Of a stretch of 64,000 nt of DNA, positions 28,169 to 55,100 are shown one piece after another. Positions within the stretch are counted from its first letter, which is position 1. Each line of letters begins with the position of its first letter. Below the pieces are notes generated by a model that did not search any database, was not told the origin of the DNA, and saw only the letters and a program-made list of their open reading frames with translations. A program made the position numbers and the translations under genes. This DNA is from Ascidiella aspersa (lineage: Eukaryota), in assembly GCA_963924565.1 (NCBI GenBank), contig OZ004610.1:14446001-14510000 (forward strand). The letters are read 5' to 3'.

Positions 28169-31100
28169 TCAATACGCGGGATAGTGGTGGTGCTGGGTCC
28201 TCAAGCTAATGGGGGGCGACAGAACAGGGCGGGCCCGGGGCATATGGGACAGGGGATTGACCGAGTGCCGGGACACCAGCAGGACCAGGGTGGGCTGGTC
28301 GTTGTCCACTAGAGGGATCGTCGAACGACAGTCGGCCTCGTGAGTCGAAGTTCCGTTAACCTGAAAGCATATCACAAAGTTTAGCATTAGGGTGAATCTT
28401 TATAAAATGCAAGACCATCGGCGAGTAGTCAGTCGATAACTGCTCCGCTGACGTGTATATTACCAGGTAAAACTCATAGTTAAAACACGAGTAAAAACAG
28501 GATCAGACGTTTTGTTTAGAAGAAAAAAATAAGGAACTGACGATACCACTTGGCGAAATATGTTTTCCTTCTAAACAAAACGTCTGATCCTGTTTTTACT
28601 CGTGTTTTAACTATGAGTTTTACTTGATAAAGTTTAGCACTATAGTGCAGGGGTTTTTAGACTTTTTTTACCGCGGACCCCTAAAAAAGATTTGCTTCGC
28701 ATGGACCACTGTCGAATGAATTTTTTTAGAGATGTCGTTATAAGTTTACGTCACAATACAAATAGACTTCGAAAATCTGCTGTTTGTGGTCCCAAAAAAT
28801 GTGAAAGTGTGATGGAGTCTAAATACATTCAGTGCGAAAACGTTTTAGTTTTAATTAAACTATTTTCTTTAAAAAAATTATTATTTTTTAAATATATACC
28901 AATATTTTAATTAGGCCTCGTACCCCCAACGGGGTCCATGGACCCCAGTTTAGGAACCCCTGCACTTGCGGGACACTTTGAAACGATACTTTATCAAACT
29001 TTGTGAATGCGCATGATTCGTAAATAAGTTCGACCGCGCGCGAGATTAGTTGCCGGATTGAGTGTCGAACTGTCGTAAGTTTAATCCAAAAACAAAAATA
29101 GCCCAATTAAAACAAAGGAAAGATCAGAAAAAACACGCAGGTGTTAGTTAAACGACATTGGAGTTCAAAAAATATTATTTCTAAATAGATGTTTTTTTTT
29201 TAATATCTCCGAAAGTCTGAGGACTTGCCTGAAGTATACGATCGTAAGGCATCAGTCCTGCCCTGTTGGCCGGACCACCCGGTTTAACGGTGTGCACGTA
29301 AACCCCCTTCTCTATCTGGCCGTCGGACATTGAGAAGCCGAAGTCGTCGCTCTGGCGATCTTTCATCAGCGTCAACTGCAAAACGATCATGGGTTGGGTA
29401 ATTACCCACAGTAAAAATTGCTATCTAGATTTCGCCAAACAGCTATGTTTCACAGCCGTCCTTAAACGATAACGATAATAATTAAGTTCTTATTAACTGT
29501 TTCACAATGGTTTTATGGCACTCATCGCTATTATCTGTGTTCAAAAATTACGGAAAACATTATTTATATTACACGCCGTTTGAAAATCACAAGAGTTTAA
29601 GAAAGAAATAAAAAACATTAGGTATTACACCATAATTATGTTATGAATCTTAGTTTAAATAAAATATAGATTGCACATGGTTCTATTGTAGTCTGTATAC
29701 TATACAGTATACTATACAGTATACTATACAGTATACTATACAGTATACTAGTATACAGTATACTATACAGTATACTAATATACAGTATACTATACAGTAT
29801 ACAAGTATACAGCCTATAGTTTTCGGACTAAAACGTTTTTTCAGATTTCATTAAACCACCTTTTGCAATTGCTGTGGCGACGAGGGCACTTGACCTTTGG
29901 CCGAGTAATCGCCCCATCCACTTCCGTGCGATTCGTACGCTGCGCCCCCTTGTGGAGCGTGATGGTGCCGACTCCCTCCCATGTAAGAGGCAGAAGGACG
30001 GTTGCGGTCCATCGTTGAAATTGTCAGTTTGCTCTGTATTTAATAATCGTCAGTTTGCTGTTTTAGTGACGTGGTTTATGCCAAAACGGGAAATATTTAC
30101 TATTATAACGACAACCCTGTCAGTCAAACCGAGGCAAAAATAATATTTCAACTGTGGATAGCTGTGAAGAAAAGTAAATTCGTTGAAAACAAAATTTAAT
30201 ACCAAAATAAATAGCGAGTGTTTTATATATTCACTGTCTGGACATTTTTACATTTTAGAGACAGAATATTTCTATTCTTAAGGCTTAACATATTATCTTA
30301 AAAACAAAAACTGCACGAACAATTACTAAAATATTTATTTAGCAGGATATAACGTTTTAGGGTTTGCACCTCTAAGTCTTGCATGTATCCGGTCGACTGC
30401 CCTACCGACTGAAGGTCATCCAACGCTCTCTGCCAGTCAGCTACCGACGCCGTTTTGCTGAAATTTAAGAGAAACGTTAAAAATTGAAATTGGACTTCAG
30501 ACTAATCAAATTTTCTGCAAACTAATACCACAAAAAGTGCTTTAAAGCAGCAACTAGCTTACAGCCTTAGATTAAAGTTTTGCTTAAGGGAGAATGATAG
30601 GCATTAGTTAAGTGGTACTTCAGTGAACTGACCTTCTGTCCGGCGCCTTGTAGCTTCGCGCTCTCAGCTGCTCTCGCTTGCCCCAAGTGTCCGAATAGGT
30701 TCGCGAAGGCCCGGTCTCAAACCTTTGGAAGAAAATCAAAGCATTGCAAGTTTAATATATTTCTTGGGTTCAAAATATTTTCAACTTTTTGGCATAAAAC
30801 ATTATTCGCATTAAAACACAAGGTTGGGGTATTTTTTAATCATGTTTTATTTAACTAATATACCAATCACACATCACGTTGTTCCTTTTTTAATCAAAGA
30901 TAGAGAACCATCCAGCTGGCAAAGGTGAATATTTGTTTACTTCCGTGCATTGAGCAACAAAGTCAAAACAAAATCACCCCTAACCAAAGTAAGGCTAAAT
31001 ACGATCGCCACACAAATAAATGTCAACTCACTTGTCGCGCAGTCGAGCAAACTGGGACGATCCGGGGTCGCTTCTCTTTTGCATGCGTAATGCTGCGCTG

Positions 31101-34100
31101 CTCGGCATAGTCGCGCTGCTGTGGGTCGCCCAATCCGTGCTCAGGTGCTGTCGGATGTCGAGGGTCGCCGGTTCGAATCCCGTGCTCGACGCTTTGTTGG
31201 GCGACTGGAGGTTGTGGCTGCCTGAGGCGAAAAAAAAAGTGCTTTAGGCGAAGCGGGAAAATAAGCTAGAAGAAACTTTTTAAGCTAGAAGAAAAAAAAA
31301 TTATAAATATTAGATAACAACGCGACCATAAATGCATTTCCCTATTTATGTAAATGCGAAAATGCTGACTGTGCAAATAGAGCAACCCAATCGCGACGAA
31401 GCCGAGCCGCAATTGCCATACACACACATTCTCCGAACGTTCAAATGGTAGCAACTTTGTAGTTCTGCCCATCGTTTGATGACACTGTGTAGTCTGTATT
31501 ACTGTCTTCCAGAACATGGAGTTCTAAAACTGTTGTCTTAGCACACATTTTGTTGTTACCAAAGTGTTACGTTTATTATTCAATTTTTTTAAGTTTTGAT
31601 TTGCAACGAAATTTAATTGGAAACCTTATCGAAATAAAATCCAAATGCTGGGAGAAATATTTTGGGACGACAAAAAATGACACTTATTTAGTTCCAATAT
31701 ACAAATTAAACAACAGCCTTTCTAACGCAATTGTCTATACAGGGTTTTAATGCGACAGCCGGCTCCAAATGCTTTGCTTAGGAACACGGAGGTACACTAA
31801 ACAAACGGTCAATCACTACTCACTAACATCATTATTCACGTAGTCACGTTTAACTGTTGTTTGGTGTTTCACAACTCTTACCTATGCTGCTTCTTGTTCG
31901 TTGTGTGTCCGCGCTCGAGTTCACCCACGACTCCACTGCACTGTCGATGCTGGGCGCTCCGGCCGGCCCAGGGCGCACACCCCTGTCCTTTTGGGGCATG
32001 GGAGGGTGAAGGTCCCTTTCGGCTTCGTGCGAGGGTGAGTGGTCGGGTAGGGGTCCCATGGGGGGAGGCAGGATGTCGTCTTCGGGGTCGCTTAGTTCGG
32101 AAATCGGCTCGTTCTATTGGTTTAAAAAGTAGGGGTTGATTTTGCTGTTCAACTTTCTGCGAACTGGAACACCACGGCGCATCTGTAAATGTGCATCGAA
32201 TCTCGAAACCAGATCATTTTCGACAAAAAAATGTTGCATTACAAAGGATAATATTTGTTTTTACTTTTAGGCAATTACCCTGGTGCAATCGTCCACTAGT
32301 AAGTTTGTCAATCTGTTATTGTTCTCGCTTATATATATTTAAGGTTCCAAAGTGGTATGCGTTCTTTGTTTAGGAAATCACCTATTTCCGTATTAAACTA
32401 TTTATGAGTAATACCTTGCGGTGGATAAGGATAAGAGGACGTCTGTCCCTAAAAACAAACATTCTATATGGTAACAAACAATATGCCTGACTATAAGATC
32501 TTGTAATTTAATTCCAGGTAACATATAAAAGACTCTTGGACGCTTATTGATAAAAAAAACATAAAATTTAAGAGTCGCAAGTACAAATAACCTGACAGCC
32601 TATCGCCTAACTTTCAAAAGGTACAGTGGTTTTATATGGTTAGATTTATTGAGATTGGTTCTGAGTTTCTCCGAAATTTGAGAATATTCAAAACGAAGAC
32701 ATGGCTCATATTTACAAATTGCTACTGATTAATGCTTATATTTTCTCAAGTTTTCGAATTAAACCCTTACTCCCCAACAAATTTATAGCAAGCGAGGCAT
32801 CATTGGAAAGGTGAGATCAATGTCTATGCAATGTGTTTGGTTTTATGGTGGGATGAAAGTTATTTGTGCCTATTGTGGTCGGATGTTTTTTGGGTGAAAA
32901 ATCGCGATATCGGGACTATTAATAGATTAATATGAAATTTTTAAAACTTTGAAATTTTTTAAATTTTTTTGTTCTTTGGCAAACTACGCCTCTAAAAATG
33001 AACGTGTGAAAGTTTCGTTCGATTGTGATTTTTAATAAGGGTACTAGAGACTTTCAAAAATTATCGCGATATGTCATGAATATTAATATCGGTTTTTGCC
33101 GAATTAAACCCTTACTCCCCAACAAATTTATAGCAAGCGAGGCATCATTGGAAAGGTGAGATCAATGTCTATGCAATGTGTTTGGTTTTATGGTGGGATG
33201 AAAGTTATTTGTGCCTATTGTGGTCGGATGTTTTTTGGGTGAAAAATCGCGATATCGGGACTATTAATAGATTAATATGAAATTTTTAAAACTTTGAAAT
33301 TTTTTAAATTTTTTTGTTCTTTGGCAAACTACGCCTCTAAAAATGAACGTGTGAAAGTTTCGTTCGATTGTGATTTTTAATAAGGGTACTAGAGACTTTC
33401 AAAAATTATCGCGATATGTCATGAATATTAATATCGGTTTTTGCCGAATTAAACCTTTACTCCCCAACAAATTTATAGCAAGCGAGGCATCATTGGAAAG
33501 GTGAGATCAATGTCTATGCAATGTGTTTGGTTTTATGGTGGGATGAAAGTTATTTGTGCCTATTGTGGTCGGATGTTTTTTGGGTGAAAAATCGCGATAT
33601 CGGGACTATTAATAGATTAATATGAAATTTTTTAAAACTTTGAAATTTTTTAAATTTTTTTGTTCTTTGGCAAACTACGCCTCTAAAAATGAACGTGTGA
33701 AAGTTTCGTTCGATTGTGATTTTTAATAAGGGTACTAGAGACTTTCAAAAATTATCGCGATATGTCATGAATATTAATATCGGTTTTTGCCGAATTAAAC
33801 CCTTACTCCCCAACAAATTTATAGCAAGCGAGGCATCATTGGAAAGGTGAGATCAATGTCTATGCAATGTGTTTGGTTTTATGGTGGGATGAAAGTTATT
33901 TGTGCCTATTGTGGTCGGATGTTTTTTGGGTGAAAAATCGCGATATCGGGACTATTAATAGATTAATATGAAATTTTTAAAACTTTGAAATTTTTTAAAT
34001 TTTTTTGTTCTTTGGCAAACTACGCCTCTAAAAATGAACGTGTGAAAGTTTCGTTCGATTGTGATTTTTAATAAGGGTACTAGAGACTTTCAAAAATTAT

Positions 34101-37100
34101 CGCGATATGTCATGAATATTAATATCGGTTTTTGCCGAATTAAACCCTTACTCCCCAACAAATTTATAGCAAGCGAGGCATCATTGGAAAGGTGAGATCA
34201 ATGTCTATGCAATGTGTTTGGTTTTATGGTGGGATGAAAGTTATTTGTGCCTATTGTGGTCGGATGTTTTTTGGGTGAAAAATCGCGATATCGGGACTAT
34301 TAATAGATTAATATGAAATTTTTAAAACTTTGAAATTTTTTAAATTTTTTTGTTCTTTGGCAAACTACGCCTCTAAAAATAAACGTGTGAAAGTTTCGTT
34401 CGATTGTGATTTTTAATAAGGGTACTAGAGACTTTCAAAAATTATCGCGATATGTCATGAATATTAATATCGGTTTTTGCCGAATTAAACCCTTACTCCC
34501 CTACAAATTTATAGCAAGCGAGGCATCATTGGAAAGGTTTACTCCTGCGCTACTTAAAAAAATGAGTTTCAACTTGGGATGAAATTTTTAATTTATTTTT
34601 TATGGCGAATATTAATATTGAATATTAATATTTTTTCGAATATTATTTTTTTTTTTCAAAATCTAAGAAACATAGTCCATTCTCAAGACGGTGGTAAAAT
34701 TTTTTTTCGAAAAAAATATACGTAATTAAGTTTATTTTGACGTTGAAATAATCTGCCAGAAATTATTTGCTGACTAGCTTTTGGTACGCTCACCCGTATC
34801 TCATTTCGCTGGATGGTGCTGGTTGCGAACGAAGGTGGCATGGCTGACGCTTTCCGTACCGCGTCCTGGCCGCCGTGGTGCCGCTTCTCCGCCCCAGGTA
34901 GTTCCCCGTCGGTGCCGGTGGGCGCGGGCAGGTCGGCCAGTTGGCGTCTAATCTTGAGATTAACTACTTCGCCGGCGTGCTGCAGCAGACCGATGGCCTC
35001 GTTAAGGGTCTTGGCTCGCAGCGGTGTGCTGTTGATGGAGAGGATCTTGTCTCCCACGTGGATTGCCCCGGTTCTGTTGCGAAGGAAAAATAGAGTGTTG
35101 AGCCTGCGAGGTTTATTTTTGTTTTTACCATTGAATTAGATAAAGGGTATAGATTAGTGTTTCTTAAATTTTTTTTCATACCCGAAACTTTTGGGTATAT
35201 ACCTGTATTTCTCTTGAATTTCTTGCGGAAGTTTTTATTACATATGCCCAAGTTGCATCAAAAATACTTCAAGTACTGTATGTACACTGAGTTAAGCGTT
35301 AAAGCAGTACTCCTCAACCTTTTTGTCCGTGGCATACCAATTTTTTTTCAATTTTTAATAACTTCGTATACCTCACAAGTCACAAATAGCAATGTTTAAT
35401 TGTGCACAGGAGGTAAAAAAAAAACTGATAATTAATTAATTGTTTGTTAAAGTGATTATAGTAGTCTCGAACTGGGCACAAGAAACTACGCATGCAAAAG
35501 TGCAAAAAACGTCAAAATTGAAGTTGATTTAATGTCTAGCTTGTTGTTGCATTGTTTCGGCAAGTTGGACATAACGTGGTGTTAGCTTTTTGGCGAGTAA
35601 TAACCGCACAACAGGTCCGGTTAAAAGTTTACAAATATGCCAATTGCTGTCTCTGTTGTGACTTCCACTAACACAGAACTAAGCTGTATACCCTTCGTAT
35701 ACCCTTCTCCAGCTGTATACCCTAGTTTTGATCTGGTATACACTTGGGTATACAGTTTACCCGGTTGAATAGCGCACTGCGTTAGAGAAAGTAAAAATGT
35801 AAAAAAAAAATGACCATTGTTGTTTTTACATTGGGATAACTGTTGATAGATGATGACCACTATTTGTCCTTTTGACTGTGCAGTCCAATCCGATTACACC
35901 AAGTTTGCTTATCTTTTAGTGTATATTTACGTTTTTAATTATATTTTGTGTTTTTGATATTTAAACGGTTGGCATGTACTTATTTTTAATTATTATTATT
36001 ATTAGGTTGAATTCTGAACTGAGTCGCCAATTGTAAACTTTTGTGATTTGAATGTTTATTTAAAAACATCCCAGTAATTTGTCAATTTTAATGTTTTCCG
36101 TTTAAATGTAAAAAAAATCGAAAGTCATTAATTTTTATACGATTTAGCACATCTGTCGAAATTATTTTCAGCGAGAAGAATAGCTTACACACATAAGACC
36201 TCATTTGCCGTGTTTGAAAAGTTTCTTTCTTGACATAAAATACACGTATAGCAGGGATGGCTCGCTTAAATCACCTGGAAGCCAGCCCACCCGGGGTAAG
36301 TCCGGAAATGACGATGGGGTCGAATTTTTCATCAGTCCCCGATATGGTGATCCCCAACGGACCCCCGTACCGCTTCAACTCGACAGTGTATGTAATGGCG
36401 CCGCTGGTGTCAGCATCCTCTGCAATGAAAAATGAATTATTTAGGCAAATTTTTAAAAACTGTAGTTGGTCAGAAGTCTGGTTTAGGTAACAAAAAAATG
36501 ATCGTGTAAAGTTCGGTAATAATTTATAATAATTGCGTTTATTCATTGTAGTGGCAACTGCCAAAGCCCATATTTTATATGTCAGAAATAAGTAAACTGA
36601 GTTTTTTATGGCGATATTTTAAACTTTCTTTAAATCAACAACTAAAATGAAACTTTCAGACGTCGAAGGGTAAAAATATTTACCATTTTTATATATTTAA
36701 AAAATACTGCTTTATTTTGATTTTGTCCAATAACCAATTATAAGATTTATGACGTTCTACCTACGTCATCCGCAGTTTTTATGACGATTCAAAAACGAAC
36801 CAACCTCGATTTGGTCGAAGCCCTACAACTTAGTTTTTAAGAAAGGGTTTTAAACTGGGGTCTAATAAACCCTCGAGGGTAGAATTGGTGACTGGAATGC
36901 AATTAGAAATGTGAATAAATGCACGAATCCGAAATTTGTACTAAACAAAACATATTCAACTGTTTCAACCATCAATAAGACGCAGCATACGCCAAAGAAA
37001 AAAAAACGCACCAGAATTCTCCTCGTCCTTAACGATCTTGAGGCGTACGACGTCTTCAGCGCTGGCGAGGAGGGCGTGTGCGTCATCGGCGCTGCATCCG

Positions 37101-40100
37101 TCCAACCTGACCCCGTCGATGCTGACCAGTCGGTCGCCGGCCTCCAGCGTTCCGGTCCGGTGAGCAACCGAGCCCCGCTTCACCTCGGCGATCATGAGGG
37201 CGTCCTCGTTGTGCAGACCTGCCACCATACGAGTTGCTACACTTTTATCGTGTATAGCTGTTTGTCATAAACTGTGTGTTGCGACACAACATTGCACCCT
37301 AAACAATGCTGTGCCGCGTAGCTTTTGTTATTTGGGAAGCTAACCTATTTATACCGCAAACACGCATACAAGACTTGAAAACACGCATACAAACACTTGC
37401 TTTTAGAAAACTTATAATAATAAATTATCCATCTATTTGCTTTCTATATAGTATGAAATAATTGTCAAGTTATAAAATTGTTGTTTTGTAACAACGGGGC
37501 AGCGAATGCAATTTTTTTATTTTTTCACTGTTCCGCATGCTAACAAGTCTGATAACCACTGATGTATAGCATAGTATAAATTTGACAGAAACTTCCTTTG
37601 GACCAAAAAAATTACAACATGCTACATGCCACCGCAATGGTTAAAGTATAAACAATGGAAACGAGTGAAAAAGGAAATTTCTTGGTTGGGCAATATGACA
37701 TAAATGTTTTTCAATCTTAAGATGTATTTTAAAAAAAAAATTAGCTAATGGATGCGATTCCAGAGCTTTTGAAGTCAAATGTATGGATATTATTTAACAA
37801 AAAAGTGTCGCACGTCAAATCAAAATATTTCAAAATCAGTCTACCTGTTTATGAGCAAAGCTATTAAATTTTCTTAATATTTCCTTAAAATGAAAAGCCA
37901 TGATACTGAGAATATTTGTAATTTTTAAGCAAGGGAATATTTAGTAGTACGTCCGCTTACCGCTGACCACAATGCCCAGATCGACACCCCTCCTCTTAGC
38001 AAGCTTGGCGTGGAAAGTCCCGCTACTGGGAACGACCGACTCCGCAACGTCGAACTCCAGCTCGAGAACCACCTGTCAATCAAATCGCTGCCATCATTCA
38101 AGTGATTGCTAGTGGCATTACACAATGCTTGGATGACATGCATTAGTGTGATTTATTAATACTTTATTTACGTATGTTTTATTGACGATAAACAGTGCTA
38201 TTTATTTAATTAGGTTTCTTTGTTTGCCTTACCTCGGAGTTATGACAGAGGTTTTTCAAAAAATAATATATATTACGTTCTTGTTTCGTAGGAAGATTAG
38301 GTCTAGTCCGGGTAACGTCAAATGCTATCTAGTTTAAAATTACTTTTATAATTAAAGTTATGTAAACCTATGGTATTGAAGTTTCTACCCTTTTTTTAAA
38401 AAATATTAGAGCCCGTTTAAGATTTAAAAAAAGGAAACAAAATCTGAAGTATTAAAAAGAAAACAAAAAGCGATCGCAGATGCACAGCGTAGCAAAAGAA
38501 TTTTAGAAAATCGATTTCCGCATTCCACAAGCTCGTTAACGGCGACAAAACAACACTCGACTGGCGAAAGCGAACAAACTGACCTGTCCAGAACAATAGG
38601 CGTCACTCAGCATGAGACTGGCGTCATCCATAGAACATTCCTCGCACCCATATCCGTTGATCGACACGATACGGTCGCCGGCCTGAATCATTCCGCACCT
38701 AGAAAGGCAGGGGGTTAAACCACACGAAACTCACGTAAAAATATTTTCTACCGCCTTTAAACAAACAATATCAATGTTACAAATTTAGTTATTATAGCCA
38801 CTTTGTGCTGAATAATGCATTTGGCCGCTGGAATCGCCGTTCGGATCGACTATCAGCCGACTCAGTATCCCTGAAGGGATAGGACTTGTGAATTTCGTAG
38901 CCTCCGTTTTCTCAGCGCTACGTGATCTTTTTGTGTGCGATTTTGTTTGTATTGCGTTATATTGCGCCGCCATTCGTCGGGTGGATACCGAGAGAATCGG
39001 ACGTATTTTGAGCACAGTTTGCAATCTTGGGGTTAGAAAAAACCTGTAGACTAATGCTAACACTTGGTATAAATGTGTGTTTGCCTTACACTGATTGTCG
39101 TACTGGCTACTAAACGTATTGCTTAAGAAGTTAAAGTCAATTCTTATTCTTAACAACTACTTTGTAGATCGTGTCCCGAACTGGTCTGCGACAATCAGGA
39201 TTTACATTTACAGGTTAGAATTAGTTAATGATGCAGTTAGGCTTGGGTTTCGGGTTGGGTAAAAGGTTTATTACGACCGTATAGATCCTATACCGACTGG
39301 TTTATTTCCATTCACACCTTTAACCGACTATCGGGTTATTAGTCCGTTTTTGGTCTTATTTCGACCGGTGATTTATTCAATCGATAAGGTTATCCCAATT
39401 TCGTTCAATGCTGGAGTCCCTGGAATGCACCGGGGCTTCAATAACATAATCCCTAAGTAAAAATACTGTGTATTTATCTCAAATTATCTAAGAGTACACG
39501 AAGCAGAATAATCAAATTCGTTTTGAAAATATTCTCGGCTCAGTTCCTGGCACGAACCTGTCGGCTGCGCTTTCCGGTTCGATATAGGCGATTACCGGCG
39601 ATCCGATCTCGGTGGCGAACACGCTTCCCTGCAGCTGGATGCCGAATGTTCCAGAAGCAGATGATGACGTCAGCGGGTCGCACGCGTCGTCCAAGGTCAT
39701 GAGGTGAACTTCGTTGAGCTCCGTATGCACAACCTGGTTGCCGCTGAGGTAGTCGGTGGAGGCGAGCGACACTGGAAGTTGATGAAGCGTGTTATGGCTT
39801 TCAAATGATGCATTCGATTGTTACGTCATTTCGGCAGGCTTGTTTTGTCTATTGAGTTAAGTTTTAAGCGATTTGAACGTTTATACCCGTTGTAAAGACT
39901 GCTTAACTTACTAAGTGAGTGTAGCTCAAGCGTCTGCACCAAGCGCGAAGCACAAAGCTTACAGATAATATAGATTTTTAAAGTAAAAAAGCAAAAAATA
40001 AAGCAAGCGTAGTACAAAATTGAAACGACCACAAACTACCACCGGTTTTAAAATTTAGCAATTAATTTTTAACAGTACGATTGCGAATGAAAACAATTGG

Positions 40101-43100
40101 AGATGTTCACTTGATTGCACAAATAATGTAAATTAAATACAAATCACCCATTCAAAATTGCTACACAAAAGCTATGAAGTGAATAAAAAAAATTAAATAA
40201 TCACACTAAGATTGAATTAGGGAATCTGTGCTACAAATTCGGTATGATTAGTTGCTAAGTGCACCACTACAAGCAAGCGGGTTGGACAGCTCGCGCCGTT
40301 ATTTCGCCAAATAATGCCCAATCTAGGAGCGGTGCAGCTGCAAGATTTGCAAGCGCATAGTTTGCAGCCGAAAGCGCTACACTACTGATGTTCTTACAAA
40401 ATGCACTGCTGCGCAAAGTTCCGTAGCGGCCCAAAAACTCTCCTCGTTCGTGCGGCAAGTCCGGGCCCAAGTAAACTGCAGAGCAGAGAAAATTTGCTGA
40501 TAAAGCGCGCCAATTTGAATTAAATTGTAGTGCCCGTTTTATGCGAGGGTAATTTAAACAAACAATTATACGACCAAGAGTCGCCAACTCTAACAGTGCT
40601 TTCAAAAATTTATCACTAAAATTTTATTTTAAACATTTCAGGTTAAATTATATTTTAATGCATGTTTTAGGCGTGGTCAATTTAAACAAACAATTCTACG
40701 AGCAAGAATCACAAACTGTGGCGGATATTTAAAAAATGCACTTGAAATTTGTTGCTAAACTTAGAAGTAGTTTAAACAGTCGACAGGTGTAAGGAAAACA
40801 TGGATAGGCCCTTCTGTAAAGTTTCGTTGGGTTTAGGTAATTAGGCGTGTAATGAACTGGTTCGAACCCAGGAGGAACCTCATCAATCGCGTTGCACGGT
40901 TTGCCAAAAAAATTTTAAACCTAGACTTTAAAAGGGGAGTGACACAAAAAGGCAGTTCGCTGAAAAGTTGGATAGTAAACGGTGGATATGAAACAAGGCA
41001 CGAAGAACCAGCCTGTACAACGTTTGCAAGAAATGATTTGCTATTTTACAGTGTCCGCAAATTTAATGAAAAGTAATATTATTCACCTTATTTATGTTTT
41101 TACATAAACAAATAGTAATTGTAGAACATAATTTTTTGGGGGGTAAAAAAGTTGCAACAATTAGATAAGCCTACTATTTTCATACTTCAATGAGTAACTA
41201 CAAAGGATCATACTTAAAAATAAATCCAAAGGAATAGTAATTTGTTTCTTGTCCAATTCATTCAATAGCAGCAGCAAAGTTACCAACACGCCGCATTTTA
41301 AACATGGAAATCGTAATTTGTACGGCAAGACTCGACGAAAACATTGTGGATAACTGTAGCTGTTTTATCCAACGCTAGGTGTGAAAATATGTATCAGGTT
41401 ACGGGTTTGGTTTTGTTGCGCGCTGCCGAGGTGTGAAGTGATTGTTTGACAACAAAGGGGAAGACCAGGAACAAGTAGTAACCAAAAACGCTGATCGGAA
41501 AAACCTTCATGTTTTAAAAAGGTAGCGTGTCTGCCCTAAGAGCGGTGATTTTAAAGGCGACCGTTAATATATACTTACTGTAGAAATATAAACAGGTGAT
41601 TATTTTTATTTTTTGAATCTTTAAACATCAGATCAATAAAGTAGCTTCGGAATATTATTTACAGCATAAAGAAGAACATTTTCAAGAAAACTGTCATAAC
41701 TTTTCCGGGTTTCTAGATAGGCAAACTTGGAAGCTTGAATGATTGTAGCTACAATTGTCGTGACTTGTAAAAGCAACCTTCTCGTTTGTGATGCTAGCGC
41801 CACACTACAAGCCTAGGCCACGGTGTGCTGTCAAAACGGACAAACGGCCCAGCAATTACGCAACACAGGAAAAAGAGCAACCTGTGGTATTGAGACGACA
41901 AGAAAAAACAGAACCTGGCTTGTCAATCGACAGAAACAACACTAAACACAGAGTGGCAAACATACAGTGACTCGCGTCGATTAGAGTTCTAGGATAGGTC
42001 TACCGGTGGAAGCCAGAATGAGAAGGAACGGCATAATAGATAAGTTTCGTTTTAAACGTTGTTTTCAGAAAAATGTATTTATTATAAATTCAGCTACAAA
42101 TTCGCGAGCTAAAATAGATAGTGGATTCGATTTTCGTTGGCAGTGCTTGTTATATATGTTATGCAAATCGCTGGGGTAGAAGTGCACAGCGTGATCCGCT
42201 TCTGCTCTCGCATTTTTTGTGCTGTTAAAGTTTTGTTTTGTTTTCAGACAATTGCGATATAATTTTAATAACTCCTTTTTGGCCGTCGAAAAGAGGGGAG
42301 AGAGAAAGAACAAATGCCACTGCTGCGCCCACTCGCGGCGTTCCTGATCACGGCCCTTATCGGCATTCGTCTGCCGACATCGCAATCCGCCCAGACCTCG
42401 CTGTTCCTCGCCTACAACGCGTCCGACGGGAGCCTGACGGGCGTCGACAACTGCACGTGCAGCTTCCTGGACCTGGATTGTACCGTCTTACCCTTCTGCA
42501 CCTGCGTCAGTCAAACGCTTGCCGAGCTGACTGCGGCTACGGAAGCGGCGAGCACCGCCAACGCTGTAAGCTGGTGGAACACGCGCCAAGTGCTGGTCTG
42601 CTGTGAAAATGCCACCAACACCGAGCTTACGCGCAGTACGGTCGCTCAGCTGGTCGATTTCTCCTACACGCAGGACCTGTCGTTTCGCGAGTGCCACCAG
42701 CTGCTGCCCAGTGACCAGCGCGAGGTCTACACTGTGTACGGACTACGAGAGTTAAGCGCACGGACCGCGGACAACGTTGCTTTTCCGAGCAAAGCCTTCG
42801 ACCTTGAAGACCCGGACGGTGACCTGACTGACGACTCGCGCCTCTACCGCGATCACCACCTTGCCGTGGTTAGCAGGAATATAGTGGACGGAGAGCGGGA
42901 TCTAAAAGCGGTAAGCTTTATCCACGAGCAGAACGACGAAGCGTTGCCGTCCCTGGTGCAAACTGCTATTGAGAGGAGTCCGAGCTCTATTCGGTCCAAG
43001 TCCGACGGGACGTTCATGTGGACGCCTATTTATAGCGACTTGATCGTGTAAATTCCATTTTGAACGTGATTGCGTGAAGTGTCTTTCTTTTTTTAAACTT

Positions 43101-46100
43101 CAGTGTTACTTTCCCTTCCATGACAAAAACATGCCAGTGCGATATGCTTGTTTTTATGCTTTGGCGTTTGTAAGTGCTCGCATGTTCGAAATATACTGTG
43201 AATAAACGCAAATACAATGCAATAAGCCTCCTATTCAAACAATGTTAACTCTTTTCTCGCTTAGTAGTTGGTGGATGAAACCACCAAACAGAAACTATAC
43301 AGCGGCTCAAGTGATGTGCAGTGCAAACTACGAGAAAATGTCGACAATGGAATTGCCTCGCATATATCGTGCCCTGTATCAACATGTGGACATAATACGC
43401 TGTTCGCTAAGGCAAAAGCAACGCTCTTATGCCGAATACCCGGCATACCACGAATAATTGAACAACATGAAAGTTATACCGTTATAATTCTACCAATTCC
43501 CATGAGTATCTCGTATTGTTTTAACGGTAAAATAAATGGCACAAATCTTTGCATAGCGCCGATAAACTTTCAAAACTATCGTTTTCTTTTACCTACTTTT
43601 TCGCAAATAAGCCATGTGAAAATACCAAAGCTAGAAAAATATCAGAAATGTTCAGTGAATATAGATAGTGTCATATTTGTTGGGCAAAAAACAAAACAAT
43701 ACCGTCGTGTAGTGAAATGAAATAAAATCACTGAACGAAATATATATTGCAACTAACAAAGAGCGGTCAACAAACAAATGAAGCGTTTTATGAGGACTCA
43801 AGCCATAAAGCTGAAATTAGAATAATATAAACTTCGAAATAAAACTCAGTTCGGAATAAGACCAACCAAAATAAGACTAATACCTAATAGTCGTAGTAAC
43901 GCCTAAAACTAAATAAGACCTAAACTCATCAGAATAAGACCTAAATGGCCAGAGTAAGGCTCATGCAACCTTTTTACCTAACCAAGAATCTCACAACTAC
44001 AACTTCACCAATAATTCCCATGAGAATTTTAACACTAGCCCAATTTCCAACCCCACACATACCCCGTACCCCTAACTTGGATTTATTATTTTGTTGGTCT
44101 TGATGCTATGTTATGATATATTATTCTGATTTAAATATTGTTGCTTTGTATGTCTTATAGTGCGTTCCCGTTCATACTTCGGAGGTTCCCTTCCTACTCT
44201 TCGACAGTACTGATTAAGTATTGATTGTTTGTTCCCAACACACGAAAACACCGCGTGAACAAATAGGTGAGGAACGGTGCAGATTACAGGAAAATTCAGA
44301 CGGGGCTGTTTACCGACAGCCTGAAACATCACGGCTCGTTGCGCAGGGAACGTAGGTAGGTACCCCCATCAACAGGAGGTGGGGCGGTTTCAGTTGCAAT
44401 TACGGAGTTAAAGCAATGCTTAAGGGTGTGAAGCTCAGTCGTTACAGCTTTCAGTTTGCTATACTTTGTACGAGTGAGGCTCAGTGATTGTGAGCAGCAG
44501 TTCTTTAAATGCGCCGCAGGTTTTTGTTGACAAGATTTTGGAAAAGTTTTTCTCTTGAGTTATATGCAACACTATCGTCTGATACAATAAAAAAATAGAT
44601 ACGTTAGATGTAGACGTTTCAGCAAGTATTAATCAATAATATTTAGGCACTACTTTTCGAAAAAGGGTATCGACAATCTACTCGGCAGATCAGTAGTTTT
44701 GAATTATCTGAATTAGGTGTAATATTTAAGCCAAGTTTTCAAGATCAGTGTAATATTTAGGCCTATTTAAGATGAGTTTCACATGAAAGCCACAAATATT
44801 CTAATGTCAAATATTTTCGTGTCGTACTAAGCTTTTGCGTTTCTTTTATCCAGCCATATTTCATCAAAAGGAGCACATGTCAGTGGTGAAACCCTGCAAT
44901 GTAGTCGCAGCGGCGATAATGATCGCGGCTCTGCGCCTTCACGACAGCGCGTTAGTGGCGGAGGGCGCCCAGACCTCGCTGTTTTTCGCCTGGAACGACA
45001 ATCGCAGCGTTATGGGCGTGCGCAACTGCACATGCGGCGAACTGGACCTGCACTGCGCCTTCGTACCTGGCTTTTGCACATGCGTCAACATTACATTGGA
45101 CGAGGTGGCGACGGTGGCCGAACGCGCCAGGTCCAACGGGACAGTAAGCTGGTGGAACGACAGGGAAGTTGTGATCTGCTGTGAAGGAGCGCAGACTACA
45201 AACGTCCTGGAACAAGTGCTCGTGCAGCTTGTCGACTTTTCCTTCTGCGAGGAACTCAAGTTCTACGAGTGTCACAACCTTACACCGAGTGACGAGCAAG
45301 CGGCCTACGCGGTGTACGGACTTCGAGAACTAAGCGCCCGAACTGTTACGAACGTCGAGCATCCGAAAAAAGCCTTCGACCTTGAAGACCCGGATGGCGA
45401 CTTGACCGACGACTCGCGCCTCTACCGCGATCACCACGTGGCCGTGGTTAGCAGGAATATAGTGGACGGAGAGCGGGATCTAAAAGCAATTAGCTTTATC
45501 CACGAGCAGAGCGACGAAGCGTTGCCGTCTCTGGTGCAGGCTGCTATTGAGAGGAGTCCGAGCTCTATTCGGTCCAAGTCCGACGGGACGTTCATGTGGA
45601 CGCCAATTTATAGCGACCCTATACGATAGATTTTTGTTGGCTTATGGCGTACAAAACTATAGCTGTGTGGTCTTTATTTTTGCATTTTGCTTTCGACTTT
45701 ACAGTTGAAATCGTATGGTGTTGTGCAGCTGCGGCAGTGTTATGTTGCGCTAATATTAATGTTGTAAATGTATTTATTTTTATTTTCGTTGTGATGCTCG
45801 CCAATCATATCAACCAAAAACTGCATGGATAACACACGTGTACATAAAAAAAAATGTGGAATCAAGGTGGCGCAAAGACTGAAGTCTCCGTGTAAGCGCG
45901 TTTATGTATTGTATCCACATGTTGACATAATTCACTATGAGCATAAAGACGATCGATTGTTGGACGTCAAACGACGATGGCTAAGAATTAAGATATTACA
46001 TCAACAAATCTGTACAAGATTATTAAATCAAGCAAATTTGAGAGGTTAAAAAAGTTTTTCCCGTAGAATACTGCGACAGAATTTGAAACAACAATATTAT

Positions 46101-49100
46101 CACTACACTTTAATTAAAAAAATTGAACTATGCCAAAGTGACAAAAAGGAAAAATATCATAAAAACCAACATTACAAGGGTTCTAATATGGTGTTCTACT
46201 CTACTAGTAATCCACCAGGTAAGCAAAATATACAAAATATTTTAAAAGATTGCGCTTTAAATATTGAATATTTTGCGTCTCCTAAGTTCACTCGCCAAAA
46301 ACGTAAAATCAGCCAACTCTTCATTCCAAAACAAACGTATAGTTTTCCGTTAAGAGAGGCGGGACAATAGTACGTAACAAGTGGGAAACAATAACCACTG
46401 TACTTCACTTTGTTGCGAGCACGTCACCAATTGCGAGTGTAAAGCATTCGCTCGCGCGAATTCACTCGCTTAGTTGAAAAGAAGAGGTCTTCAACAGTTT
46501 CGATAGCTTGGCGCAGAGCTTCGAGCGCACACGTCCGTCCTTGTGGTGGCGGTTAATAGGTGGTCTTATTTAACAAAATCAGCAGTTTTGTACTGTTTAC
46601 TAGTCGTTATTATATAGGAGATCTGCGTTTAAAGCGGCCTTTACACATTGGAGTGGGCATCCGGACTGGCAAGGCAAGAAAAGCAAGCAGGTATATCAAA
46701 GAAGGCATGGCGCTTACAGCTGGTTTTAAGGTGGTTTGGCAGCAAGTTAGTGGCAACGAGTGTACAGTCCTTAATCAGTCTTTACACATATAGATTGTTG
46801 CCGTTCGCTGTCAGTCGAGCGCAAAGCGACAAGGGGTTGGGCCTCGAAAATTTCAACCACAGGCGCTTTAAGGCACATATAATCCAACGCGACACGACCC
46901 AACTGGCGTGAATGGCTCGATGAAGGAAAGCGGCCGTCGCGGAAGTGGATTAGTCGAGTGGTTATGGAGGTCGCGAGGTGCTTGGCGTGCAAGGGCAAGC
47001 CGGAGAGGTGACAGGGACAATGGAATCGCTGGCCTGCTGCTCGAAAGCACAAGGGCCGCCTTCATATGCCGTTTGTTTTCGACCGCAAAGCACACAGGAC
47101 GCGCTTCCACTTCGGAGGGACGATTGATCCCAAGGCAAGGCCGTCAGATATGCCCATTGCCCAGACGCATTGGCGCATCTCGCTTGAAAAGCCAGGGGTC
47201 GCGAAACGGACAGAAAGATTTGCGTTTGGTGAGAAGCCTCGGTGCAGCTTGAATAGCTAGTGATCGATATTCGAAATCAATAGGAACATGGTGTGTTTTG
47301 TTATGTGTTTTTAGTAAGGTCAAGGTCGTATGGTGCTTTTGGTTAGGAAACCAGCAGGCAAACCAGGCAAAAGCAAAGCAATCACCTTTCGGGCAAAGTT
47401 AGACAGTTTAGTATTACGTGAAACTGCATAATATTTGAGGTTATCCGGTGGTTTAGTTTTGTTTTTACATTTGAATGATGGAGTTTACAGTCCTTATAAC
47501 TACCATATCGAGAAGAGGCTAAACAACAGGTTTATTTACTTTTTGAAGTGCTAGATACAGTGATTCCCAAACTGTGTGCCGCGGCACACTAGTGTGCGTC
47601 GAAAGATTGTCAAGTGTGCCGCGACACTTTTTGTAATTTTGGAAAATAAGTTATTTGTACTGCCAATGTGCATACACGACACGTTACCATTTTCGACCTA
47701 AATACGCTCTATCCATTACAAATTACTAATATTGAGACATTTACATATAGTTTGTCGTGTGTTAAGGACAATCTTAAAACTACTCTATGTTGTTCTGTTA
47801 AGAGGGTGTCGCGAAATAGTTAATAATGTTTTAGTGTGCCGCAAGCTAAAAAAAAGTTTAAGAGCCTCTGTGTTAGAAGATGTTGGTAACGAAAAGGTAC
47901 ATTGTCTTCAAGACCAGTTGGGCCAATTTTAACAAGAAATAGTAGAAAGGTTATCATCGGCGTCTAATGTAAATATAATAAGTTATTTGCAAGACGACGA
48001 ACAACAGACGTTTCACACGACTTTCAAAACGCCAGCCTGGCCATTTTGAATGGATGTTATAGCTGGCCTTCAGGGCCGCAATCTGCTTCCAGGTGTAAAG
48101 CCCAGAACAAGTGATCCGTGGTGTCGCGAACAGACGTGTTGTTTGCTTTCGGCATTTGGGGAGCAGGGGTAGGCGGAACAGTCGCACCTACACACGTAAA
48201 CATTCGACAAAAAGCGGAACGAAGGCAGAGCGGGGAGTGGCGGCAAAATAAAAGGCCACCGTAAGGTTGCGCGGCATAGCGGCTTTACTTATATGCGACC
48301 GCGGACTGCTAAACCCAATACTCATTTTCGGGTGAGTGTGAAACAGGTGCAGGCCGTTATGGGACTGGGAGCTTTGTCAGGTCAGGAAAGTATGGTTTTG
48401 AAATAAGCTAGGCACGACACGACCGACACGTCTTAGATTTGGCGCTCGGTTTTAAAAGTAGCTTCGCTAAACTCGCTAACTGGAAGACAAATCAGTTCTG
48501 TTTCTTTAGTTGTAGTTTTGTTAGCCAAATCGGTGCAGCTCTATACGGTGTGTAACAATTTTGCAAACGTAAATACAATTTTAAAGATAACAACATTTTT
48601 TTAGAAATTTAAAGCTCAAAGAGGTACGTTAGAACCTGTATCTTACATTTACCAGGGAAGGACAGAAAATCAAATTGTTGGTAGAAAAACAGCGCTGGTC
48701 AAGACCTTAACTTTATTAATGTATTATAAAGTAGCTCAGACACAACTGCAAGGTTCTACCTTGATCCAGCAACATCAGTTTAATTCCAGTTGCAAAAAAA
48801 AATTATTTATTGATTTATTTCGGTTGCAAAATTAACATAGCATCTCTCAATATGCTTCTGTTTTAACCAGATGCAGCGAGCCGCCTGTAGGTTTTTGGCA
48901 GCGACAGAAGCGAGAAGCCCTCTTCGTCTTATCGCGCTGTGCTGTCTGTCGCTTGTCGCACATTCCGGGGTCGTCCTGCTCAGCGACACGCCGACGCTGG
49001 GTCTGGACCGCTGCACCTGTGGCGAAAACTTTACGGCAGAGGACTGCAACGCCAGGGTTGATGAGCTAAAGGTTCGCGGCTGCGAATGCACGCGCTTGAG

Positions 49101-52100
49101 CGAGGTAGAAGTCAAACAAGCTGCGGAAAACGCGAGTGCGCGCAACGCGACGACTTGGGAGGATCGGACTGGCGATACGCGCGTGTGTTGCTTCGGACTG
49201 CTAAATGCGAGCCGCCTGCTGCGAAACGCGCTCGACTTTGGCTACGTGCGCCGCTTAACGCTTGACAATTGCGGGCGGACGATCGGCGGCGGCGCGGATA
49301 GAGTGGTGACGCTCTTCGGGTTGAAGAAGTTGGCGCTTTACGAAGGCGACCGCAACCGCAGCATCGACTTCGTCGCAAACGACCTCACCGACCTCTCGGC
49401 CACTTACAGACGCCATCACGTGGCGTTCGTGGCGCCGCGGGCGGTGCAAGCGATGCGGGCGTCGCGCGGAAGGCCCTGGAAGATCTGGAGCTTCGTGGCG
49501 TCGGCCGATTGCGCGCCGCACAGCGACGTTATCAGGACTGCGCTGAACCGCGCGCCGCGAGTGATACGGTCTGGACCGAATGACACTTTCATGGCGACGA
49601 CCATTTATGTTGATAATTAATTAATTAGCGACGACGCCCGATGGGTGGGGAAACGCCGTTTTTTGTCGCTGTGGCGCGCTGGTAAGCGACACGCTTCTAC
49701 TACAGCAAAGCAATGGCAATTTGAGAAACCAGAAAGTTGAACAGGAAAAATTTGAGCAAAAAACACTAAATCAATTAATTTGTGCAAATTGCTTTTCTAT
49801 CTATCACTTGCTGCCTGTGGCCCTAACTCAAACAATTCGCCTCTAATGTTCCCGATCGGATTAGGAAACACGTCACATGCTTTACCATATTTATTTAACT
49901 GTCCGACGATTGCATTTATATGCTATAAATATAAAAAATAAAAAGTGTTAGAAAAAAAAATCGGCGCAAACCATGCTTGTATTTCGTACTGAAAAGCAGA
50001 TATAGCATTCTGTCAAATAGGTTTAGACTGAAGGTGAAGTGTTTGATAACAAAGGAGTGGCGCTGATAAATTGATCGAAGCAGCTCGGCATTAATGGCCT
50101 TGTCAAGGGTAGGGTAGGTAAAGATAGATTGTTTTTGTAGATCAAGGGGTTTACGGATGGAAGCCTGTTTCGAGGTTTGGCCGATTTTAAAATAGTTCTG
50201 CTCGGCCGATAACAAACATTTCCCACTATACACATATAGGCTTCAAGGGAATTGGACTTGACATGGTTTCCCAAATTTTGTCTAGATTTCAACAGAATGA
50301 CGCCATACCGTTGAAATCGAATAAGTCAGTAAAAGCAAATCTATACAAGTCCCATAAAGGCGGAATCTAAAAACGGGGTTCGGGCCAAGCCTATGAAAGG
50401 AATTGTGATGATTTCGGTGATTATGCAGTGTAAACAGCGCAGAATAGTCTATAATAAGGTTCATTTTCTACATTCGTTCAAACGTTCTAAACCAGGTTTC
50501 CACCCACACTGGAGGATTTGGTTTCATATCACGTTCTATAACTTTGAAACGGGAAATCAAAATCCACTGGTGAATGAAAAAAGGTTAATAACTCAACAAA
50601 TACGAATTCTAAAGGCGTATAGTTTCAACAATAATTATCTCTCTAACAGTTACGAATGGTTTACAAAGGTTTTTGGAACACAAATCACCAATATTTAGCA
50701 TAGATTTACGAACAGTATGCTGTTAGCGTTGGATGTCCAGTTATTTTACGTATGTACAACTACGATTGTATTTAGTAATAAGCACACTTTAAGAAAATAA
50801 AAAACGGGTCGTAAGGTAAAAACATCTACTCAAACTACGTTATACATGTAGAAACATGGAAAACGTGTAACGGCAATTCGCAAAAAAGAAACTTACTGGC
50901 ACTGGCGCTGTACTTGTTCCGGGGCATACGCTTACGGTTCCAGCGGTTGCTGCCGCGGCCGAAGCTGGTGAGGGTGCCCACCCCCTGCTGCTGGCGCGCC
51001 ACTCGTTGTGAGTTTAGCGCCGTCATCGACTGAGCGCTCGTTATGAACGGAGTGAAGCGACCCTCTGCAAAACACAGCAAATTTGGTGATTTTTAACATT
51101 TAACATAATTAAATAATGATCTAAATAATATTCTTCTCCATGTAGTTTTTTCATATCAAGGCGGCATCAGACTCGTAAACCCTCCCGGGTTATTCGGTGT
51201 CACCTTGCTAAAGCGCATGTTCAATTTCTCGCGAACTTTGATCAATATTACATATGAAAAATGCGTATGGCAAAATAAATACTTTGAATAGTTGAACATC
51301 GTTGGAGCGTGCTTTTTGACGTTTTCAAATGTGATAACAAAACTAGCAACCGACCAGGAGGGCTGTTAATTTTTGCACACATCAAATGTCGGAATAAAGC
51401 AAAAAGAGCTGCTTGAGTAACGTTTCTGTGCGAAGCACAATTGTCATGAGTCCGTGCACGCACTTATGTTTACTCCTAAAGTGAAAACGAAATGGACAGT
51501 AGCGCGTAAGATTTTATCGACGTTCAAATATTTGCTGTCTAGCCTTATCGCGCGGTATATTAGAAAAATTTGTTATCCACAATACAAAAAAATGGTAAAT
51601 GCGCGAACTATAGTTGCAATTCTATGACGTACTTTTTATTTAAACAAGTTTAACAACATGTTCCGAAAACAGTTTTATTGTTTAAATATATAAGACAAAG
51701 CCTATAAGAGCGAGAGAATATTTTCGTTAAATGTACAACAATTATTGCTAGAAATGTTTTGTTTACATTTAGGAAAAAAATGTTTAATATAGAAATTGGT
51801 TTGTAATGGTGCAGAAGATAATAATACTGTCGTTACTTGTCGTACAATTTACAGGCTTACATTCTACAAATAACTAAAAAAAATCTGGAGTCGATTTTTT
51901 TGGCCTTTTGAGATTTTTTTTTGTAATGTTGGTTATTGTTGCATCTAATCTTTTACCACGTACGCAAAGTGCCCAAATTATCAAAGGCAAAAGTGCCTAA
52001 ATAGCCTGTCTCCGCGAAAAGACCGTTTTGGTTCTTTACTTTTTTGTCTGCTGCTGACGTCAATATCAAGAGAGGCGTCGTGTGGCGGACAAGCGTAGCG

Positions 52101-55100
52101 TGCTCCAGCCGCCCATTGGACAAAACTAAACGCCCTTGTTGCTGCGGTTTTAACAGTAAGTATTTCTCACTTAATCGAGAAACGGTTGTTTTTCTAGGTA
52201 ACGGGATTAAATGTTTCGGCATCAGGAAACTTACGCCGACATCGTGCTACTAACCAGACAATGGAATAGTTTGATTGAGGTTTGCCAGTGCTCCGCAACC
52301 GGTGTGCCGTGGCACACTGATGTGCCGCGAGACCATGCCAGGTGTGCCGCGACGTTCCTGGAGGTGTGTTACTTGCGTTTTTAAGTGAACTTATTAATCA
52401 GTAGAATTAACGCAAAAACTGGATATCGCATCATGGCAATTATTTTAAACTTATGCTAAAATCCAGGTGTAATATTATGGCCTTTCCATAGTCGTTTAAA
52501 CAGTTTTTAAAACCTATGTTACCTTCTTTTACCGGAAATTAAGTATTAAAATAGGTTTTTTGACTCACTCAACTTCCAGGAACTACACCAGGAGTACAGA
52601 CTTACGATAAATATTTTCAAACATTACGCGAAAGTGTAAAAGGGAGATTAACCATGCGCTCGAAACCTATGAAACATCATTGTAAATACATTATTGGCAG
52701 TATGTGACTGTAAAATTAATAATTAGTTTTGGCAGCGGTTTCGAAAAATAAATTAAGCAACAAAATACAAAGCACCAAGGTCAGGTTTCATTTTTCGAAT
52801 GCTATTAAAAGCCCTCTGCTCTGATCAGGTATTGCAAGGGGGTACAATTTTCAGAACTTTGACTGGGCTAGAAATTTTAGGAAGTCTGCAAAACCGCAAA
52901 ATAAGAAATGAAAGGAATGTAATACATAAAATTTTCGGCGCCTTCAGCGCGTTTCATCATAGATCAAGTCATGCCTATTTAGATTGACTGCATACGACAT
53001 TTCGTGATATTGTCATTTGTCAATCGACATACAGTTCGTAGGTGCGCCGCCAAATTGTTTTAACTCTGTTGGTGTGCCGCAAGTGAAAAAAGGTTGCGGA
53101 GCACTGGTTAAGGCGAAGGTTTAATGGTCTTTTGACAGAGTTTTTCCGAAAATTACTCCGAGAATCAACAAAATAAAAATCGAAAATGGAAACTGGCATA
53201 AAGCATAAGCCACGTAAACCCGGAACACTCACGTCCGTAGGGCTTGGGACTGGTGATGGCCAGGTGGGACACCGGCAGTATCTCGAGCTTCACTTGGTCA
53301 GAAGAGGTCTGCAGCATGTCGGACGCCTCGCGCACACTCACAGACCCGTTGCCCATGGAAACGTTGTCGATGGAAAGGATCTGGTCGCCAATGTGCAGAG
53401 CTCCGCATCTACGCGCATTGAGAAGGAATGAAGTCAATGCGGCAAAGTACTCGCATTCTTTTGTAATGACCTTATTTCAATGCACTTGTCTGGGATATTT
53501 TAATCACTTAATTGACTGTGGAGCTTTTATAACATTCTTCAAATTGCTTCGATGACACCATTACTTCTTGTACCCTAAGGTCAGCAAGTTTAGATATATG
53601 ATATATTTCACGACAATAACTCAACGTAACCGTATATTTAGATTAAATTAAAATACAAAAATGCCTTGATTTGTTTTTAACTAAAAACTTTAAATAGGAT
53701 CTACTAGATGGCGAGTTGCAGATTTAATTTAAAGAGCAAATATTTCAAAATACCGGGCAATTTCTCATCATCAACTTGGTGTGTGCTTACCAGTAGTTTA
53801 GGGCCAGCCACTGAATAGTCAAAAAATGCCTGTCAATTACGTCTAGTTATTGGCAAACATTGCGCGGTCAGATTACGGTAACTGGACGCCGCGCACCGCT
53901 GGCCAAGTTTACGACTGGATTGTCCAGTGTTTGAAATTGCGAGATTTAACAACGATCTAGTTACCGAAAAATGTTTCTTGCACTCGCGCGAGTGTTGACG
54001 AAACGGCCTGAATGTATATAACCCGGCACCGCGTACAATACAAACTTTTTACTTTCCCAGTCAAGACGGGGAGCCGCGACTAATCCCGTGATCAAATAAA
54101 GCAATTCGTCTTCATACTTCACCCTAGCATAGGTCCGACATCGACAAAAGGACAACGTCTGATGCTAATCGCTCAACGTCGACCGCGACAAGGCAGCTTA
54201 TCAACGAGGCAAAGATTACGAAGAACCACAACCCATTACCCGAAAGCGTTAAACATGACTGGGGCAGTTTATTTTTACGGTTACTAAGAAAAAAATGAAC
54301 AAAACAATGATTTTGAAGGTTTTTCTGTATTTGGAGTAATTTGTCAAAGAATAGAGGTGCGATTGCAGCAGAACAAAGTATATTTCACACATTTTTGTTC
54401 GAACTCATTTTTGGTCATTTTACGGTGCGTTTACGGTATAAAATTGCGATTTAATGAGCACGATTTGTATACTTTCAAAACCGCAAAACCATTAACCTTT
54501 ACGCCAGATTTCGATTTGCCTAAAATTTGTTATTTGTACCGACAATATCAGTCGAATTCGACCGCAGCCCACCCTGGAGCTCCTCCTAAATGTACACGTG
54601 TTGTCTATACTTGTGCCAATAGCAAAATAAAGTTCCATTCACCTGTCCGAAATGCTGGCGGGCTTGACGCGCTCGATACAGATCACTGGTTTCTTGCGGT
54701 GGGTCGACTTGGTTAGGGTAATCCCCAGCTCGGCGCCGGGCGTCTTGGAAACTTCGACCAGCAGAGGGCCAGTGGCGTTGGCGACCGCGTCTGTTTCGCA
54801 ACAAAACACCAATATTAAACTTCATTCATCAAATTAGGCCAGGGGTTCTTAAACTGGGGTCCATGAACCCCTTGGGGGTCGGTCCGTGAACTAGTTTAAG
54901 GTTTAATTGAAATATTAGTGTATTATTTAAGGAGTAATCAATTTTTCGTATTTTGACTCTACTTCATTTTCACATTTTTTGAACCATAATCACCATATTC
55001 CTAAAGTCCATTTGTATTGTGACGTCAATTTATGACGTCCCTTTTGAAATTTTTTTGCCTAACGTGCTTCACGCGAAATAAAAAATTTAGGGGTTCGCGG

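Follow-up and report, generated by a model that had tools for sequence, protein, structure and literature searches.

A 64,000-nt stretch of the Ascidiella aspersa genome (contig OZ004610.1, positions 14,446,001 to 14,510,000, forward strand; hereafter the window, numbered from its first letter) carries three intronless genes, paralogs A, B and C, nested antisense to a GRIP-type host gene. A and B, offset by 2,578 bp, share a nearly identical 3' third, which we call the tract (table 1). In each gene a single exon, preceded by an acceptor-like site that may mark a non-coding first exon or trans-splicing, contains the whole open reading frame (ORF). On hydropathy, the sole basis of these assignments (no signal-peptide predictor was used), all three show a signal-like segment (11-residue peak of 2.6-2.9 within the first 40 residues) and no later transmembrane segment (19-residue maximum at most 1.4 after the N-terminus), and the products are predicted to be secreted. 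The cysteines of the family occur in all three, those of A recurring in B in 8 of 8 cases. Across the 309 Mb genome searched, the tract is found at exactly two places, and protein searches found A, B and C with nothing further of the family accepted, a count of at least three; likewise P0021 as genome query returned A, B, C and one match at an expectation value (E) of 0.17, with no fourth copy seen (again a lower bound). A possible family member on another contig, met in the family search of the genome itself, was rejected as a 20.6-bit match carrying stops. In the 6% of RNA run X8 that was read, A, B and C did not appear; its depth across non-repeat bins is at most 2 and in a single orientation, which is compatible with host pre-mRNA. 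Contigs of run X3, whose kind is not on record, are ~10-fold deeper over A and B than in between.

Table 1. Features of the A/B/C locus in the window.
Feature	Position	Strand	Remarks
Paralog A	42314..43051	+	intronless ORF, 245 aa, 8 Cys, 3 N-glycosylation sequons, EPCIP-like
Paralog B	44877..45629	+	intronless ORF, 250 aa, architecture as in A, 5 sequons, EPCIP-like
Paralog C	48871..49620	+	intronless ORF, 249 aa, 6 sequons, 21-37% identity to A/B, unconverted
Acceptor-like site 5' of A	42231..42247	+	polypyrimidine + CAG
Acceptor-like site upstream of B	44833..44853	+	
Acceptor-like site	48853..48870	+	immediately 5' of the ATG of C
Tract in A	42791..43039	+	homogenised; codons 160-242
Tract in B	45369..45617	+	homogenised
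Best-supported conversion core	42830..43039	+	after synonymous breakpoint at codon 173; partner 45408-45617
Stretch of 47 nt identical between A and B	42863..42909	+	
Candidate segregating short conversion	42961..42962	+	A alleles of X2 and X4 carry the letters of B; A of the window and of X7 do not
GRIP1/2-like host gene, matched exons	30623..60227	-	span of matches; gene ends undefined
Interval between two GRIP-type multi-PDZ exons	39772..50896	-	holds A, B, C

Over the tract, A and B differ at 14 of 249 nt and in the encoded residue at 4 of 83 codons (L/V, V/I, N/S, T/A), 10 of the differences being synonymous by the Nei-Gojobori count. In protein, the mature N-terminal parts (codons 27-159) reach 53% identity (70/132), and codons 62-159, with no indels after codon 62, agree at 179 of 294 nt. 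Identity ends three codons 5' of the stops, and in the flanks blastn at word size 7 gives only chance matches of 19-22 nt. All this accords with what the first-pass annotation had read from the letters alone, namely a near-identical tract sharing most synonymous sites, an upstream protein about half identical, and an abrupt end before the stops. It had also proposed to follow synonymous divergence (dS) along the genes, which is far from uniform: dS is 0.97, nonsynonymous divergence (dN) 0.40 and dN/dS 0.41 for codons 27-159 versus 0.21, 0.021 and 0.10 for codons 160-242, and four-fold sites differ at 18/33 in the N-terminal part versus 5/32 in the tract (Fisher p=0.0016). The best synonymous breakpoint lies at codon 173 (~42830) and not at the start of the tract (42791): codons for the same residue differ in 33 of 82 cases before it and 4 of 64 after, and the max-chi value of 21.95 was reached by 2/5000 permutations. 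Four silent differences fall in the acidic stretch. The 14 differences lie in clusters (of the 13 gaps, 7 measure at most 5 nt versus ~3 expected, p ~0.01), as expected from overlapping patches; an identical run of 64 nt, the longest, is within chance for 14 differences (p ~0.2). In separate trees of the N- and C-terminal parts, also among the proposed checks, the A-B distance falls 15-fold, from 0.71 to 0.046, whereas the distances of A/B to outgroups drop only ~2-fold; all three trees computed place A next to B as its sister, at 96-100% support. Taken with a shared allelic state described below, these results uphold the partial gene conversion that the annotation had suggested: the shared 3' third was, as far as sequence comparison can tell, most likely copied between A and B by interlocus gene conversion.

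An artefact of assembly or polishing, which the first-pass annotation had entertained as a chimera, would fit the fact that no single read or contig examined covers both genes, but both copies are reproduced outside the assembly. Contigs of runs X2 and X3 reconstruct A and B, each with its own flanks, and raw reads of X7, from a different study, contain both tract versions together with the B-specific junction at 42791. Assembly artefact is thus refuted for the tract, and we grant it practically no probability. X2, from the same study as the best genome match, represents another haplotype, since 38 positions in 1,393 nt of its A allele depart from the window; its B tract equals the letters of B in the window, and its assembly breaks only around 42863-42909, which is assembled as a contig of its own with roughly twice the depth (259 vs 115-133). 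Several features of the haplotypes may be recorded here. Over 41500-42790 the A haplotype of the window lies ~2.5-2.7% from those of X2, X3 and X7, X2 and X3 depart from the 5' part of B by 0-1 base in more than 1,000 nt, and X7 joins an X2-type 5' part of A to a window-type tract. A 302-nt contig of X4, a run with another organism label, matches 42834-43045 with an X2-type A tract fused to unrelated letters, and a second short X4 contig is fused at 43045; both have a depth of 3-5 and are possibly library chimeras.

Allelic variation also bears on whether purifying selection alone, acting on the protein or on an overlapping RNA or DNA element, keeps the 3' thirds similar. The tract does sit within a transcribed host intron, and the C-terminal part is somewhat more conserved to outgroups (A vs P0005: 0.45 versus 0.27 in the N-terminal part). 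Yet divergence falls more than 4-fold at silent sites, and the alleles of the tract vary freely: A differs among haplotypes at 5/249 nt in the tract versus ~12 in the 480-500 nt upstream, the B tract of X7 has 4 further changes, and replacement changes are included. The tract alleles are thus about as variable as the upstream part, and this is evidence against a cold spot or a concealed DNA element. In addition, a comparable step is seen in 0 of 136 other family pairs. In these, the pairs of 17 other full-length members (fragments P0009 and P0019 were excluded from pairwise means and trees, and P0017, a 1518-aa repeat ORF, was dropped as spurious), mean identity is 0.262 in the N-terminal and 0.276 in the C-terminal part, and the largest C-minus-N gap is 0.15 vs 0.42 for A/B. 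Selection as the only cause is, in our judgement, very unlikely. The same low standing goes to a chimera made by unequal crossing-over, in which one ancestor supplied the 5' part and the other the 3' part: it too would give one 5' step in similarity, but similarity should then run through the stop into the 3' flank, so that an end three codons earlier, within coding sequence and before unalignable flanks, argues against it.

Conversion may have left one further trace. At 42961-42962 the A allele has the state of B in two of the three covering runs (X2 and X4, not X7), while A in the window and in X7 encodes Thr, the commonest residue among relatives; this is probably a short later conversion event, although it consists of two bases and is weak alone. 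Shared states between paralogs are a recognised sign of conversion in the excerpted text of PMC3924837, which also describes conversion as persisting where purifying selection maintains similarity and as silenced in flanks. A/B resemble the interlocus conversion of tandem duplicates treated in that excerpt in their regional dS drop, unalignable non-coding flanks and shared allelic state, and differ from it in their 12 remaining fixed differences, which place them near the end of a concerted phase. The 5' two-thirds and all flanks are near saturation at silent sites and the 3' third is not. Somewhat stronger purifying selection together with the lack of indels could have kept the 3' third alike enough for ectopic pairing, and conversion would then have persisted there after dying out upstream, in several patchy events and not one, the latest possibly still segregating. 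In the literature we found nothing on gene conversion among tandem paralogs of ascidians.

As to what the genes encode, sequence relationships make A, B and C likely distant tunicate members of the secreted EPCIP/C21orf62 family (PF15137). A phmmer search over 1.84 billion representatives gave 19 matches, with E down to 7.7e-33 and nearly full length, of which 13 also match PF15137 (E up to 0.1), 7 of the 19 scoring above its cut-off of 27 bits; one relative spans profile positions 37-218 of 218. Paralog A matches P0004, P0005 and P0006 at E at most 1e-30 over about residues 20-240, and these score 35.9, 34.3 and 40.8 bits, respectively. Support for membership comes from this full-length homology via intermediates that pass the cut-off, a direct match being absent. 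In the Atlas, the top three matches are all PF15137 clusters (score 0.93, 177-186 shared features). Other homologue searches, started from B or from an alignment of the three paralogs, found no relatives. The named relatives among those looked up are all ascidians (Clavelina, with three proteins, Ciona, Styela and Phallusia), and the ~13 others may include other groups. The genome of the window also has a GH6-like exon scoring over its cut-off, which fits a tunicate, where such a domain is expected in cellulose synthase. P0034 from Phallusia is a 210-aa family member whose source label, 'Kielin/chordin-like protein', is probably wrong. P0014, P0018 and P0020 group in one clade, supported at 97-100%, whose C-terminal part is shorter; two of the three have good PF15137 scores, and the clade could bridge to vertebrates.

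The architecture points the same way. Like EPCIP/CU062/C21orf62 (DUF4571, PF15137 ECPIP), the three proteins have ~220 mature residues, a signal-like N-terminus, no later transmembrane segment, several N-glycosylation sequons and a whole ORF in one exon, in A/B/C behind the acceptor-like site; in the human gene, exon 4, the last, holds the whole ORF according to the excerpted PMC10487028. Unlike EPCIP/CU062, A/B/C are non-vertebrate, stand in three tandem copies antisense in a GRIP-type intron, are ~25 residues longer than the 218-position profile, an additional helical segment preceding the final strand, and score below detection. AlphaFold2 models of A and B are confident (predicted local distance difference test 87.7 and 86.7; predicted template modelling score, pTM, 0.82 in both). 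Foldseek found no match at E 0.001, and the best VIA-align Z scores, 5.1 for A (root-mean-square deviation 2.6, 72 aligned) and 3.3 for B, give no clear PDB match; among the structure libraries searched, CU062 had no structure, solved or predicted. A leucine-rich-repeat-like resemblance (Atlas rows at most 0.84) was set aside at structural Z scores of at most 3.0 and remains a lead. The prediction of an A+B complex scored 0.00, run without alignments and with the partner fold uncertain.

A divergent 5' part joined to a homogenised 3' part, as in A and B, is found in clustered protocadherins, and the first-pass annotation had read the locus in this spirit, as recognition proteins with divergent Cys-rich N-termini and a constant C-terminal docking module holding an acidic, possibly Ca-binding stretch. 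Comparison with the family does not support this functional reading. The cysteines are a shared scaffold (8/8) and the N-terminal part is under purifying selection; the family, with flat identity in the 136 pairs, has no constant C-terminal module, and paralog C, at 37% there, lacks the tract. The acidic loop (codons 160-174) averages only 0.225 identity, among the least conserved segments, and A and B agree in 15 of 15 residues. Only D168 is near-invariant, the 19 relatives have 1-5 acidic residues where A/B have 7, the acidic ligands show no conserved spacing across homologues, and the loop has lower confidence in both models. Identity of A and B in so poorly conserved a loop points to conversion and not to a conserved Ca site; A/B alone may still bind Ca. 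Unlike variable/constant recognition arrays, the locus has only two converted copies and no shared constant exon, no signal of positive or diversifying selection and no family-wide constant module. The tract is genuine but ordinary; conversion is common and not in itself the sign of a recognition system.

A more specific version is that conversion bears on the whole gene, while selection holds the N-terminal two-thirds of A and B apart for different partners and leaves the C-terminal part as an interchangeable docking or oligomerisation surface. Islands of divergence of this kind, as at opsin exon 5, are described in the excerpt of PMC3924837, where opsin and RHCE/RHD show the same divergent 5' part and homogenised 3' part as A/B. 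The sharpness of the dS step despite the lack of indels after codon 62, the higher dN/dS of the N-terminal part (0.41 vs 0.10) and the three or more PKD+REJ genes of the genome, of which two lie close to each other, speak for such an island. Nevertheless, the flanks are unalignable too, so that no background of low divergence lies on either side of the peak; replacements are not in excess (dN/dS <1, and of the 11 allelic changes listed for the N-terminal part of A, 8 are silent); the Cys scaffold is fully common to A and B; and neither the family nor paralog C has a constant C-terminal module. The whole-chain pTM of 0.82 in both models, in which the acidic loop is the only low-confidence linker at the breakpoint, and the description of the human protein as one domain (PMC10487028, in excerpt) also sit poorly with separable parts. 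We regard this island as unlikely.

The surroundings of the genes indicate how old the arrangement is. A host exon at 39515-39772 matches GRIP1/2 PDZ structures, and a possible small exon near 40300-40480 may divide 39772-50896, with A, B and C above it. Metagenome loci L006 and L007, identical across both genes, have GRIP exons on both sides of an intron that nests a gene of the A/B type and another of the C type; paralog C is likely the orthologue of the second nested gene in L006, and neither C nor the L006 pair shows homogenisation. Two Clavelina members with consecutive accession numbers hint at the same tandem arrangement. On sequence, then, the pair of subtypes is old and the A/B duplication is later: A/B is a lineage-restricted duplication within the GRIP-type intron, because the other genome has one gene of each type and every tree pairs A with B. 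Repeats are also present at the locus. A dispersed high-copy repeat with internal TGTGCCGC motifs, likely a miniature inverted-repeat transposable element or an element like a short interspersed nuclear element, lies between B and C (47557-47860) and further at 11739-12055, 52289-53091 and 5481-5538, with read depth 30-300x background. A second high-copy repeat, with short AATAAGACC-type units, lies between A and B (43864-44160) and at 1838-2241. Inside a GRIP-type intron, 32590-34615 holds a tandem array of about six 345-bp units without ORF, the inner copies 100% identical, and a minus-strand fragment at 571-1125 resembles a non-long-terminal-repeat retrotransposon reverse transcriptase.

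Conversion between A and B, within an explanation of all three genes as EPCIP paralogs, remains the reading that we consider probable, even though a number of observations weigh against it. Among the haplotypes seen, 12 of the 14 differences are fixed, which implies that conversion is infrequent now, and the contrast of polymorphism with divergence is not significant alone (Fisher p=0.41). In the A/B-type subfamily the C-terminal part is moderately more conserved (0.39 vs 0.33 in the N-terminal part), so that selection contributes, but the step is too large for selection to explain. No sister species carrying both A and B was found, L006/L007 having a single A/B-type gene. As for the family, Pfam gave 0 of 3 matches of A, B and C to PF15137 at E up to 1 and insignificant matches only, a genome search with PF15137 missed the locus, the Atlas recognition value of 1932 is below its reliable level, the link to the vertebrate family runs via the Pfam profile and intermediates, and a near-conserved Trp at position 200 is absent from A/B.

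What A and B do can be approached through the human protein. CU062 oligomerises and binds the PKD repeats of polycystin-1 (PMC10487028, in excerpt), and human polycystins have, in the excerpted text of PMC11968823, only two validated partners in vesicles, EPCIP being one. By analogy, the products of A and B would be secreted glycoproteins that oligomerise and likely bind the PKD repeats of polycystin-1-like proteins. Candidate partners exist: PKD-repeat exons followed by REJ exons occur at three genome loci, one at C1 18.89-18.95 Mb and two at C2 33.74-33.87 Mb (L010-L015), and encode at least three candidate polycystin-1-like proteins. The two C2 genes are ~100 kb apart in diverging orientation and have similar long exons. 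It is an unlikely extension that the EPCIP-polycystin-1 pair predates vertebrates, that both sides expanded in tunicates, and that selection holds the N-terminal surfaces of the young paralogs A and B apart for different polycystin-1-like receptors, their oligomerisation ends staying interchangeable through conversion. If true, the breakpoint near codon 160-173 would map the receptor-specific surface of a protein without a solved fold. The family has been published as confined to vertebrates and reported as not seen in Tunicata or Cephalochordata (PMC10487028, in excerpt), and our literature search, partly judged by title or the start of the abstract, found no report of invertebrate EPCIP/C21orf62/DUF4571 members. 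In contrast to that statement, ascidians carry several divergent copies of the family, some above the Pfam cut-off, which would date it to at least the tunicate-vertebrate ancestor; one ascidian protein carries a precomputed PF15137 tag, and this range extension may have been latent in databases rather than unseen. With a 20-sequence alignment in hand that folds confidently to a structure without clear PDB match, the function of EPCIP with polycystins becomes testable in tractable ascidian embryos.

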